Shown here in pieces: positions 6,761 through 23,739 of a DNA stretch of 64,000 bases (positions within the stretch are counted from its first letter, which is position 1; every line of letters starts with the position of its first letter). A program made the translations under genes and the position numbers. Below the pieces are notes generated by a model. The model was not told the origin of the DNA, ran no database searches, and saw only the letters and a program-made list of their open reading frames with translations. The DNA is from Eledone cirrhosa (lineage: Eukaryota). The stretch covers positions 46,810,001-46,874,000 of the forward strand of contig OZ024743.1 of NCBI GenBank assembly GCA_964016885.1, given 5' to 3'.

Positions 6761-7962
6761 AAGGCGCCGGTCCCTTCCGGGAAATGGCCATGCTCAGTGT
6801 GTAGGAAAGGCGTAGGTAGAAACTCCATTTTATGTCACAAATGCAAAGTATGGGTGCATAAAAGATGTAGTGGGATCATAGGTAAGCTAACTAAGAACAT
6901 AGATTTTACATGTGGCCAGTGCTCTGGTGCAATAAGTAGCAGCAAGTGCCCACAAAGTACTAGCTCTTTCAATTGCACAGAGGATTCTATAGAAATAGTG
7001 AACAGCTTCTGTTACCTGGGTGACAAAATCAGCAGTGGGGGAGGGTGCTCTGAAAGTACAGTAGCTAGAGTCAAAACTGGATGGAAAAAGTTCAGACAGC
7101 TTATACCACTATTAGCCGCTAAAGGGTTCTCCCTAAAAATGAAAGGCAGGCTGTATGATGCCTGCATACGAACAGCAATGTTGCATGGCAGTGAGACCTG
7201 GGCATTGTGTGCAGAGGATATACGCAGACTAGAGAGGAACGAAGCTTGCATGCTCCGCTGGATGTGTAATAGTAATATACGCGAACGGCAAAGCATAAAT
7301 GAACTAAGGGAAAAATTAGAAATAAAAGGGATCAGATGTTGTTTACTCGAGAGAAGGCTACGTTGGTATGGTCACATGATGCGCATGAAAGACGACAGCT
7401 GTATAAAAAAGTGCAGGGCAATAAAGATAGACGGTAGCCATGGAGTAGGCAGACCCAGAAAAACCTGGGACGACCCGATAAACTCCGACCTCACACACTT
7501 ACACCTCTCCAAGACAATGTCACTGGACCGAGATCTTTGGCGGCACTCAGTAATAGAGAAGACACGCCTTACCTAAATACAAAGTAAAACCTACTACAGT
7601 CAGTAGGCATCTCTAACAAAATACACCCCCCGTCCCACCACCCCCACCCCATCCACACCGCCCCTTTCAATGTAAAGTTATGTTGGTGCCACAACATCCA
7701 GGCCGAAACAAATGAGATCGTGTAGGTGTCACGACAAAAAAACACACAGTCCACGCTGTAATGTGGCCGTGTAGGCAACACGGTAAAAACCTCCCAGTCC
7801 CACACTGTAAATGTGGTTGGAGTTAGGAAGGGCATCCAGCTGTAGAAAACCCGCCAGCTGTAGAAAAAACCAGACAACCACTCTTGCCTCAAGTGAGAAA
7901 ACTCCTGTCCAAACCCATGCAAGCGTGGAACATGGACGTTAAACGATGATGATGATGATGAT
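6761..7962 (+). mobile_element. RTE family A, 5'-truncated
   Basis: ORF 6743-7576 C-terminal RT region; same 3'UTR and (GAT)n tail. Confidence 0.93.
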
Positions 7963-8094
7963 ATATATATAATGCATATATATATATATATATATATAAT
8001 GCATATATATATATATATATATATATATAATGCATATATATATATATATATATATATAATGCATATATATATATATATATATATATATATATAT
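7961..8094. repeat. [TAATGCA(TA)n] interrupted microsatellite
   Basis: Four TAATGCA units separated by variable TA, between two tail-to-tail RTEs. Confidence 0.9.
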
Positions 8095-10850
8095 CATCAT
8101 CATCATCATCATCAACGTTTAACGTCCGTGTTCCACGCTTGCATGGGTTTGGACGGGGGTAGTCCCACTTGAGGCAAGAGTGATTGTCTTGCTCGCATAG
8201 GACTGTCTGGCAGGTTTTCTACAGTTGGATGCCCTTCCTAACACCAACCACATTTACAGTGTGGGTCTGGGAGGTTTTTACCGTGTTGCCTACACGGCCA
8301 CATTACAGCGTGGACTGTGTGTTTTTTTGTCGTGACACCTACACGATCTCATTTGTTTCGGCCTCGAAGGCGCGGCACCAACATAACTTTACATAGAACG
8401 GGGTGGTGTGGATCGGGTGGGGGTGGGGGTGGTGGGACGGGGTGTATTTTGTTAGAGATGCCTACTGGCTGGAGTAGGTTTTACTATATATTTAGGTAAG
8501 GCGGGTCTTCTCTGTTACTGAGTACCGCCAAAGGTCTCGGTCCAGTGACATTGTCTTGGAGAGGTGTAAGTGTGTGATGTCGGAGTTTATCAGCTCGTCC
8601 CAGGTTTTTCTAGGTCTGCCTATTCCGTGACTACCGTCTATCTTTATTGCCCTGCACTTTGTTATACAGCTATCGACTTTCATGCGCATCACGTGTCCAT
8701 ACCAACGTAGCCTTCTCTCGAGTAAACAACATCTGATCCCTCTTATCTCTAATTTTTTCCTTAGTTCGTTTATGCTTTGCCGTTCACGTATATTACTGTT
8801 ACACATCCAGCGGAGCATGCAAGCTTCGTTCCTCTCTAGTCTGCGTATATCCTCTGCACACAATGCCCAGGTCTCACTGCCATGCAGCATTGCTGTTCGT
8901 ATGCAGGCATCGTACAACCTGCCTTTCATTTTTAGGGAGAACCCTTTAGCAGCTAATAGTGGTATAAGCTCTCTGAACTTTTTCCAACCAGTTCTGACTC
9001 TAGCTACAGTACTTTCAGAGCACCCTCCCCCACTGCTGATTTTATCGCCCAGGTAACGGAAGCTGTCCACTATTTCTATAGAACCCTCTGCGCAATTGAA
9101 AGAGCTAGTAGTTTGTGGGCACTTGCTGCTACTTATTGCACCAGAGCACCGGCCACATGTAAAATCTATGTTCTTAGTTAGCTTACCTGTGATCCCACTA
9201 CATCTTTTATGCACCCATACTTTGCATTTAGGACATAAAATGGAGTTTCTACCTACGCCTTTCCTACACACCGAGCACGACCATTTCCCAGAAGGGACCG
9301 CCGCCTTGTTTTCTTTCCTACAAACTAGCACTTTGGTCTTAGCCAGGTTAATTTTAAGTCCTTTTGACTCTAGGCCGTGCTTCCATGTTTGGAATTTCTT
9401 CTCTAGCTCGGCCATTGATTCCGCTATGAGTGTCAGGTCGTCTGCGTATAGGAGTTCCCATGGGCAGCCTGTCTTGAACTCCTCTGTTATAGCCTGAAGG
9501 GCAATAATAAATAGTAGTGGACTGAGAACAGAGCCCTGATGGACGCCAACTTTTACGCTAAACTCTTCACTATATTCGTTGTTAATTCTAACCTTGCTGA
9601 CTGTTTCTTTATACATGGCTTGTATAGCCCTCACAAGCCATTCGTCAACGCCTAGTTTTCTAAGAGCCCACCAGATAATGGAGCGGGGGGACTCTGTCGA
9701 AGGCTTTCTCCAAGTCGACAAAAGCTAAGTAGAGGGGTTTACCTTTAGCTAGGTACTTCTCCTGTAGTTGTCGTACTATGAAAAGAGCGTCTGTGGTACT
9801 TTTGCCTGACACAAACCCGAACTGCATTTCATCTAGGTCAATTCTCTCTCTGATTAGTTGCGCTATTACTCTTTCCGTGACCTTCATGACCTGGTCGATT
9901 AATTTAATGCCTCTATAGTTACTCCTATCTAGGGCGTCTCCTTTACCCTTATAACAGTTAACGATGATGCTGCTATGCCAGTCCTTCGGAACAACCCCAT
10001 TCTGTACGACTTGGTTAACTATGCGGGTGACCATGGTGTGTCCCACCGTGCCAGATGCCTTCAGCATCTCAGCAACTATTTCCGAAGGCCCAGCCGCCTT
10101 ACCAGTCTTCATATCCTTGATTGCCTTACTTATTATACTCCCCTCGACTAACACTGCTGGTCCCTCTATTGGGTCGATATGGGGGAGACTGCCTTTCTCC
10201 CAATTATTCTCCTCATTTAGAAGCCTTTCATAGTGACACTTCCAAGCTACCTTCTTATCAGCGTCGGTGATGGCAAGTGTGCCATCGTCGTTTAGTACAC
10301 ACTTCTCCCCGACAATATCACGGTTTTCCTTGACACATTGCCTAGCAATCCTGAACACCTCACGTTTTTGGTCATCGCGTTGTAGAACATGCTTGAACTT
10401 TCTTTCCTCAGCTTCCCTTCTTGCTAAGTACACTTGTCTCCTAGCTTCCCTCCTGGCCACTTGATAGTCCTCTCTACTTCCCCCATCCCGCCATACTTTC
10501 CAAGCCTGCTTTTTGGCCTTAATTGACCCCTCCACCTTACTGTTCCACCACCATGTTACTCTCCTCCTGCCTACAGGCCTGCTCCAGCCACAGACTTCGT
10601 CTGTCGCCAACAGCAGGTTTGCTTTCAGAAATTCCCACTCTCCCTCTATATTGTCCGACTCTAAATGTTCTTCCTTACTGTCGAAAGCATCAAGTAATAT
10701 GCTTTGAAATTTATTCCTGGCTGTGGGGTCCTTTAGCTTCCATATTTTCCTCCTGAGGATAGTCCTCTTCTGTTGTCGAGTACGTCTCGTCCTGACTATG
10801 AGGTCGCTAATTATCAGTCTATGTTGGGAGGTGCATTCTTCATGGGGGAG
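8094..10850 (-). mobile_element. RTE family A, 5'-truncated in the endonuclease, 1-bp frameshift
   Basis: ORFs 9660-10871 and 8492-9721; (CAT)n at the left end. Confidence 0.95.
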
Positions 10851-11372
10851 ATATATATATATATAATGCATATATAGTAATAATAATAAAATTGAAGACT
10901 AAAATCCAAAGAGGGCTCGATAAGGATAAATATATATCAAATATATAAGAACCGTAGAGCAAATATTTATTAAAATAACAGATTAAAGTTTAAGCAAAGA
11001 ATCGCTGCTTTCACCCTTAACGGGATCTTGTCTCCGAACATTCGTGTATTTATATGTAGGTATGTGTGTGCGCTTGTTATATACGTATTTATTTACTTAT
11101 ATACGTTTATATAATTATTTATTTATTTGTACACAAGCATACACACACACATATTTATATGTGCGTGGTTTTGTATACCTATGGTAAGGTTTTGCGTATG
11201 CTTGTGTATGTACATATTTGTTTGCGTGTATGTATTTATTTATTTCTATTACTTCTGTATTGTATTTATTTACTTTGTTCTTAACTCTGTAGCGGAGATT
11301 CATTTGGTCTCCTACTTCTACTTTACCATTTAGCTGGTTTTGTCTTTGCGTGCTAATGTTCTCCACGCTCCA

Positions 11373-22251: not shown

Positions 22252-22457
22252 TATGGATATATATATAATGCATATATATAATGCATATATATAAATATAT
22301 AATGCATATATATATATATATATAGATATATATAATGCATATATATATATATATAATGCATATATATAAATATATAATGCATATATATAAATATATAATG
22401 CATATATATAAATATATAATGCATATATATATATATATATATATATATATATAATGC

Positions 22458-23670
22458 TCTAGTTTGTAGGAAGGAAAATAGGGCACCGGTCCCATCCGGG
22501 AAATGGCCATGCTCAGTGTGTAGGAAAGGAGTAGGCAGAAACTCTATTTATGTCCCAAATGCAAAGTATGGGTGCATAAAAGATGTAGTGGGATCACAGG
22601 TAAGCTAACTAAGAATATAGATTTTATATGTGGCCGGTGTGCTGGTACAATAAGTAGCAGCAAATGCCCACAGAATACTAACTCATTCCATTGTCCAGAT
22701 GGTTCTATAGAAATAGTGGACACCTTCCGTTACTTGGGTGACAAAATCAGCAGTGGTGGAAGGTGCTCTGAAAGTACAGTAGCTAGAGTCAGAACGAGAT
22801 GGAAAAAGTTCAGAGAGCTTATACCACTATTGGCCGCTAAAGGGTTCTCTCTGAAAATGAAAAGCAGGCTGTATGATGCCTGCATACGAACAGCAATGTT
22901 ACATGGCAGTGAGATCTGGGTATTGTGTGCAGAGGATATACGCAGACTGGAGAGAAACGAAGCTTGCATGCTCCGCTGGATGTGTAATAGTAATATACAT
23001 GAATGACAAAGCATAAACGAACTAAGGGAGAAATTAGGAATAAGAGGGATCAGATGTTGTTTACTCGAGAGAAGACTACGTTGGTACGGTCACGTGATGC
23101 GCATGAAAGACAGCTGTATAAAAAAGTGCAGGGCGATAAAAATAGACGGTAGCCACGGAGTAGGCAGACCCAGAAAAACATGGGACGACTTGATAAATTC
23201 CGACCTCACACACTTACACCTCTCCAAGACAATGTCACTGGACCGAGATCTTTGGCGCTACACAGTTATACAGAAGACCCGCCTTGCCTAAGTACAAAGC
23301 GAAACCTTCAGTCAGTAGGCACCTCTAACAAAATACACCCCCGTCCCACTACCCCCCACCCCATCCACACCACCCCCTTAAATGTGAAGTTATGTTGGTA
23401 CCACAACATCCAGTCCGAAACAAATGAGGTCGTGTAGGTGTCACGACAAAAAAACACACAGTCCACGCTGTAATGTGGCCGTGTAGGTAACACGGTAAAA
23501 ACCTCCCAGTCCACACTGTAAACGTGGTTGGTGTTAGGAAGGGCATCCAGCCGTAGAAAACTCGCCAGACAGTCCTATACGAGCAGGACAACCAATCTTG
23601 CCTCAAGTGTGAAAACTCCCGTCCAAACCCATGCAAGCGTGGAAGATGGACGTTAAACGATGATGATGAT
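22458..23670 (+). mobile_element. RTE family A-related, 5'-truncated, more diverged
   Basis: ORFs 22572-23006 and 23094-23291; GAT tail; flanked by ATAATGC direct repeats. Confidence 0.92.
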
Positions 23671-23739
23671 AATGCATATATATATATATATATATATATA
23701 TATATATATATATATATTATGCATATATATATATATATA

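Follow-up and report, generated by a model that had tools for sequence, protein, structure and literature searches.

Introduction

By a general mechanism, an interrupted microsatellite can grow into a minisatellite. Arrays in which mobile elements and tandem duplication meet are described for Drosophila, where R1, P, and hobo elements form tandem copies separated by target-site duplications (TSDs) that later grew by unequal exchange (PMC5932611; this and all further literature is cited from excerpts of the sources). The Penelope-like elements Naiad and Hydra target (TA)n, with TSDs being unreadable inside the repeat (PMC8557442), and Waldo, Mino, and Dong target other microsatellites (PMC3812793). 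Elements of the RTE clade have a single frame with APE endonuclease and reverse transcriptase (RT), a microsatellite 3′ tail, and a short TSD of mostly 7–15 bp (PMC6007223); links of RTEs to microsatellites are also known (PMC2887409). In this study, we analyzed a 64-kb stretch of a 3.0-Gb animal genome with presumably octopod-like repeats (G000:C4:46810001-46874000, hereafter the window), in which a TA repeat interrupted by the 7-bp motif TAATGCA surrounds ten mobile element inserts. We consider it likely that this array is a locus-private minisatellite, i.e. an interrupted TA repeat whose units multiplied through slippage, template switching, and unequal exchange and which received ten insertions of TA-seeking elements.

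Results

Structure of the TAATGCA array and its inserts

The motif TAATGCA occurs 105 times in the window, with 103 of these copies lying within positions 7961–23739, where eight further copies are present in reverse orientation. Counting both orientations, the array consists of 111 units and ten insert gaps, thereby confirming an earlier estimate from a preliminary description of this DNA that about 100 units carry no cargo. The units are arranged head to tail and, with a median of about 25 bp, are longer than a microsatellite unit, as in a minisatellite; pure spacers comprise 9–43 bases (median 21, n = 77). Single-copy DNA was not found between the units, in support of the earlier proposal that the array grew from a single site. 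The motif in TA is real, but the full polarity ascribed to it is not, as there are eight inverted copies, two TATGCATA chimeras, and one TAATGCATT chimera, with both fold-back chimera types turning about the central TGCA. The array and the features in and beside it are (window positions):

7961–23739, plus strand: (TA)n array with TAATGCA interruptions, 111 units with a period of 13–47 bp; the array DNA totals about 3.6 kb and encloses ten inserts
6762–7960, plus strand: 5′-truncated RTE-A at the left array edge; 5′ flank is TA without motif
8095–10850, minus strand: young RTE-A, a 449-bp part of which matches another copy at 100%; in a TA spacer, 32 + 15 TA bases
10877–11373, unstranded: end of a Penelope-like family (inverted pseudo-long terminal repeat (LTR) piece), multi-copy, nearest copy 92%
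11750–12330, unstranded: sub-array with extra T's without GC as interruptions, the reverse complement of A-interruptions elsewhere in the array
12473–13918, minus strand: young RTE-A; 5′ end abuts the motif, tail side (AT)28
13992–14228, plus strand: 5′-truncated short interspersed element (SINE) with 3′ sequence common to RTEs
15329–15854, minus strand: young RTE-A 3′ fragment, separated from the flanking motifs by 4 + 16 TA bases; nothing points to a motif TSD
16442–19322, minus strand: Penelope-like insert, no Pfam match
19657–20059, unstranded: end piece of a third Penelope-like family, multi-copy
20201–20375, minus strand: inverted-unit block (TGCATTA, six times)
20434–21692, plus strand: RTE-A/RTE-B chimera; tail stops 5 bases before the motif, 5′ flank without forward motif
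21768–22256, unstranded: third long interspersed element (LINE) family, internal inversion, (TAGA)n-type tail
22451–23675, plus strand: older RTE-A (nearest copy 97%) with 7-bp TSD ATAATGC, the sole insert whose TSD must include the motif

The inserts thus comprise four RTE-A copies, one RTE-A/RTE-B chimera, the third LINE, the SINE, and three Penelope-like pieces. Instead of the roughly 12 unrelated inserts originally counted, there are ten, and not all of them are unrelated, with four belonging to RTE-A and a fifth RTE-A piece being present in the chimera. Two pieces of 0.4–0.5 kb formerly regarded as unique turned out to be multi-copy ends of two more Penelope-like families: the searches gave 571 and 2350 first-look candidates, 40 of which were scored for each piece, and at other loci both adjoin RT and GIY-YIG-type frames.

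RTE-A has a single frame with APE endonuclease and RT and a (GAT)n 3′ tail, as is characteristic of RTEs; judged by this anatomy, we take it to be a putative member of the RTE clade. The near-full RTE-A copy at 2815–5962 carries PF03372, PF14529, and PF00078, its frame being broken by one frameshift. Also, in the RTE-A frame at 8495–9724 (minus strand) a PHD-type zinc finger follows the RT domain (Pfam PF00628, E = 1.7e-6). Several RTE-A copies (L047, L052, L158, L163, L168) contain an internal duplication of the 3′ untranslated region with the same junction, which suggests a sub-family with a duplicated end. The Penelope-like pieces were classified by motifs and structure, namely RT and GIY-YIG motifs, pseudo-LTR/inverted ends, and TA targets. 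Their frames have Atlas neighbors at 0.93–0.99, some with GIY-YIG (26–27% of members) and RVT_1, and the Pfam search matched no Penelope-like frame.

Identities to the nearest copy along the array are 96, 100, 92, 99.9, 99, 99.8, 98, and 97%, most of them determined against a limited set of fetched copies, and show no trend. As insert ages are without positional order, the array is not a chronological log, and the earlier view of a repeat/spacer array recording mobile elements is not supported: a CRISPR-like log has one repeat per spacer and grows by polar, chronological acquisition, whereas here 111 units accompany ten inserts. An Rfam search of positions 6000–25000 yielded 98 sub-threshold matches, driven by TA and a tail-to-tail RTE pair, and no hammerhead. 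Tail-to-tail RTE-A pairs at 7882–8179 and 50894–51030 form long inverted repeats around a few array units.

Junctions and target-site duplications

The array unit had initially been equated with the TSD. Because both flanks of any insert in periodic DNA look alike, the bases between an insert and the nearest motif were summed over both sides. Nine of the ten inserts leave 20–59 bases between the flanking motifs, compared to a median spacer of 21, and therefore fit insertion into a TA spacer. The insert at 22458–23668 leaves 3 bases, and consequently its 7-bp TSD (ATAATGC at 22451–22457 and 23669–23675) must contain the motif; the equation of unit and TSD is thus supported in this single case. 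The region 15328–15856, previously named as another example, is uninformative, since its 4 + 16 = 20 TA bases are within the normal spacer range and any insertion into the array would look the same. Apparent TSDs in periodic DNA should accordingly not be taken as evidence.

To obtain TSDs outside of TA, 90 RTE loci were narrowed to 63 with both junctions, 24 without a TA run nearby, and 14 with a non-RTE 5′ flank. Seven of these 14 clean sites had no match of at least 4 bases and seven had matches of 4–7 bases. At clean sites, TSDs thus do not exceed 7 bp and are unlike the unit periods of 13–47 bp; the 7-bp motif alone fits. Copying of the motif by a TSD can occur, with one case among the ten inserts.

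Duplication of units

In the TAATGCA array, 25 of 57 neighboring pairs share the same period versus 5.5 after shuffling (p = 5e-5), and variant motifs occur in adjacent runs. In a second array of the window, periods are clustered as judged by mean difference (p = 1e-4). Its features are:

48846–50970, plus strand: second array with private motif CCRAACYCAGC, 27 units, four insert gaps
49392–50476, unstranded: tandem block duplication of a SINE and the following units, 98.3% identical, same variant at unit 4

Here, duplication of units plus cargo at the DNA level is shown: the two neighboring SINEs are 98.3% identical to each other but at most 93% to 24 other copies, and the 31-base junction common to both is found twice in the genome, both times at this site.

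None of 277 short interruptions in three arrays contained a remnant of the (GAT)n tail (GATGA or TCATC), and no tail-only insertion was present in the sequence fetched up to that check. With nine of ten inserts not requiring a motif duplication, TSDs of at most 7 bp, and no tail remnants, the suggestion that abortive insertion or TSD formation is the engine of array growth is not supported. When founder duplications were scanned for, 34 cases emerged, most of them inside arrays, with 0–7 bases of microhomology and no clear signal. At C1:3.059 Mb, the first motif copy follows the 4-base sequence ATAT in ordinary host sequence.

Private motifs and genome-wide occurrence of TA arrays

A two-unit 37-mer of the TAATGCA array has 13 matches in the genome, 12 of them at this locus. 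For a single-unit 21-mer there are 561 matches, versus 194 for a control; the 100 of these that were listed are scattered, mostly single, and often located inside arrays of other motifs, and on these grounds TAATGCA was rejected as a genome-wide satellite. In array form, TAATGCA is nearly private to this locus. Similarly, all 13 genome-wide matches of CCRAACYCAGC are in the second array of the window, and 85 of 85 matches of a 22-bp motif on C1 lie inside 11.5 kb. Complex motifs are private to their own locus, while one- and two-base motifs (e.g. a single C) recur at many loci, so that the earlier expectation of one private motif per locus applies to the complex motifs only.

For an overview of the genome, 60 evenly spaced 10-kb stretches (600 kb) from the four largest sequences were sampled, with at least four copies of one motif defining an array and at least 8 bases defining a TA run. 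Such TA runs make up 5.0% of the sample. Also, 20 motif+TA arrays with nine different motifs were detected in 12 of the 60 stretches, spanning 2.1% of the 600 kb. An RTE is located at the edge of 2 of the 20 arrays and of 12 of 213 single TA runs (p = 0.34); 18 of the 20 arrays are therefore without an RTE at the edge, as determined with a library of ten families. The TAATGCA locus belongs to a class of loci that occurs genome-wide and derives from known processes. No description of private-motif TA arrays as transposon nests was found in the literature searched, which covered few subscription journals; such arrays are not mentioned in the first third of a repeat annotation for octopus (PMC13282606) or in the excerpt of PMC9115989.

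TA preference of the inserted elements

In the genome, a 36-base end of RTE-A is matched exactly 11,553 times. In a sample of RTE-A loci, half of which came from the first 4 Mb of C1 while the rest was picked by long tails, a TA run is located at most 45 bases from the tail at 44 of 60 loci versus 9.5% of random positions, and the preference for TA assumed from the beginning was thereby verified for RTE-A. Long-tailed RTE-B is less TA-biased (8 of 30). The 3′ flanks of RTEs start with ATAT in 51 of 90 cases, the background being 3%. TA-adjacent RTE-A copies are found in arrays in 17 of 44 cases, compared to the 32% share of arrays in all TA bases (p = 0.42), indicating that TA itself is what attracts them; 21 of the 60 sampled RTE-A insertions touch a TA-anchored minisatellite. 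Tails end within 5 nt of the motif in three of eight cases, no closer than expected by chance (p = 0.30). An origin of the motif as a remnant of an RTE tail, or its use as a preferred site of annealing (ATAATG resembling ATGATG), was dropped in view of these chance distances and the absence of remnants. An array of 29 units contains no element. By contrast, the minisatellite at G000:C2:48200001-48220000 (L237-L238), which extends over 20 kb or more and has a 25–27-bp motif with a near-fixed 11-base TA spacer, comprises 448 units and two RTE inserts.

Other TA nests of the window

The motif of the second array resembles a SINE-derived flank at 43.8 kb. At 43770–45250, a SINE-like flank with CCAAACCCAG+(TA)n units is accompanied by an inverted copy about 1.2 kb downstream, which adjoins a short piece derived from Penelope, the terminal 24 bp of which are present on both sides of a TA run; this flank is the likely source of the second array's motif. 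To the left of the TAATGCA array, positions 2727–6761 form a separate TA nest with duplicated units of about 20–75 bp and a 146-bp insert; the near-full RTE-A copy therein has the 7-bp TSD ATAGACA. Kilobase TA arrays with single-C interruptions, orientation flips to G, and several RTE inserts are present at 51086–64000, where the array runs past the window, and in L080. A near-perfect palindrome of 424 bp (58801–59224) is centered on a 9-base TA run, and similar arms are found at L016, L030, and L072. Elements with CTAG-type ends lie in TA at 23740–24501 and 43990–44790, one of them with 173-bp internal tandem repeats; by resemblance, we presume them to be candidate Helitron-type non-autonomous elements. 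On C1, the first and last 26 bases of a 30-kb stretch (L061-L063, G000:C1:3050001-3080000) are nearly alike and a similar sequence ends L078, which may reflect a large tandem duplication or a common repeat.

Discussion

Origin of the cargo-less units

For the minisatellite considered likely above, the founder would have been a motif of the host flanked at either end by TA or by a short ATAT. As a motif flanked by TA already represents a direct repeat, misaligned copying would duplicate motif plus TA, either singly or in blocks. Because (TA)n is palindromic, fold-back copying could yield inverted and chimeric units; the formation of hairpins and cruciforms by AT/TA tracts is described, together with the fragility linked to it (PMC11797062). 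More TA would offer more targets, and inserts would gather in proportion to TA, with which the counts are consistent. Nicks straddling the motif might occasionally add a unit as TSD, as in the one case here, and would be a minor input. Each expansion could have been triggered either by fork stalling or by a transposon nick.

Several observations weigh against this explanation. In the C1:3.06 Mb array, period clustering is weaker (mean difference p = 0.013, identical neighbors p = 0.24). As for unequal exchange, block duplication with cargo was seen directly in the second array and not in the TAATGCA array, where the signs are indirect and come from period clustering. Two further junctions resemble motif-spanning TSDs, one of about 20 bp near 50480/50950 and one of 29 bp at G000:C1:3.061 Mb, both of which could alternatively be short-spacer insertions or result from target loss, and TSD length is not measurable within TA. 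The correlation of unit number with insert gaps, expected in the preliminary description, is present in weak form (rho 0.54, p = 0.09), obtained from 11 hand-picked arrays in one of which two of four gaps are not elements. Finally, other unannotated repeats often adjoin arrays and the element library was restricted to ten families, so that the sampled arrays show no dependence on RTEs rather than independence from all transposons.

An insertion-driven loop had been favored at first, in which retroelement endonucleases nick AT sites flanking the motif and both completed insertions and abortive nicks that are repaired duplicate motif+TA, thereby becoming the main source of units. We consider it unlikely, even though one certain motif TSD here and the two apparent ones elsewhere, the ATAT start of RTE 3′ flanks, and the proposed re-cleavage of L1 TSDs (PMC3812793) are in line with it; the founder following ATAT at C1:3.059 Mb fits a nick site and equally well microhomology for slippage. 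The clean-site TSDs are too short for the units, tail remnants are absent, runs of equal length are not expected from independent nicks, RTEs are not in excess in arrays, and their tails lie at chance distance from the motif. Doubtful, too, is the extended idea that AT-cutting retroelement endonucleases are the hidden engine of the genome's TA excess, with nick repair copying the motif without cargo and thus turning an estimated tens of thousands of loci into sinks that enlarge themselves, carry a private barcode, and take up much of the new insertions, i.e. a positive feedback between transposons and minisatellite birth. If nicks do drive the growth, retrotransposition and the birth of minisatellites would be connected in a genuinely new way. 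As each complex motif is confined to a single locus, such motifs provide natural barcodes for distinguishing between transposon nicks and simple errors of replication as the driver of tandem-repeat growth.

An assembly or sequencing artefact, by which unit number and TA lengths were inflated or scrambled in low-complexity DNA, is very unlikely. There is an N gap beside one other array, and in 13 sequencing runs the best share of locus words was 0.27, which came from repeats and as a repeat-family signal, with no orthologous or empty allele among the reads, is evidence neither way; private motifs, propagating variant units, distinct dated inserts, and a SINE pair diverged by 1.7% are unlike a collapsed or looped assembly. 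Least probable is reiterative copying by an RT that jumps to the target DNA within one insertion and copies motif+TA several times in equal-length bursts beside inserts, for although equal-length runs often begin at an insert edge and short inverted target copies occur near element ends (43.8 kb vs 45.1–45.25 kb), the 14 clean insertion sites are without repeated target copies, very large arrays hold few inserts, and every block in the TAATGCA array lies between inserts, making adjacency to an insert trivial.

Comparison with known systems

The TAATGCA locus works partly like the R1, P, and hobo arrays: one site was hit repeatedly, copies of the target lie between the elements, and unequal exchange probably expanded the array later. 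At the junctions, it differs from them. In the excerpt describing these arrays, junctions contain one TSD of family-typical length between copies of the same family, whereas the TAATGCA array mixes families, has about 100 units without cargo, and includes the motif in the TSD of one out of ten inserts. The strong bias for (TA)n and the unreadable TSDs in the repeat resemble the accounts of Naiad and Hydra; unlike there, an RTE family is TA-biased as well (44 of 60), and insertion occurred into a TA array whose interruptions carry a locus-private motif. With the RTE clade, as far as covered by the cited excerpt, the elements have in common a short TSD and a target that begins like the tail (AT and GAT, respectively), while TSDs are 0–7 bp here instead of 7–15 bp and the amplified repeat is target DNA and not the element tail.

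Growth of an interrupted microsatellite into a minisatellite is matched by head-to-tail units, clustered variants, block duplication, and structure-forming TA. The parts are known and the scale is unusual, with about 2% of the sampled DNA being TA-anchored minisatellite, which in this lineage bears on assembly, on how repeats are annotated, and on the evolution of genome size. Different from the typical case is thus the extent, as TA runs account for about 5% and arrays for 2% of the sampled DNA, with many of them being transposon nests.

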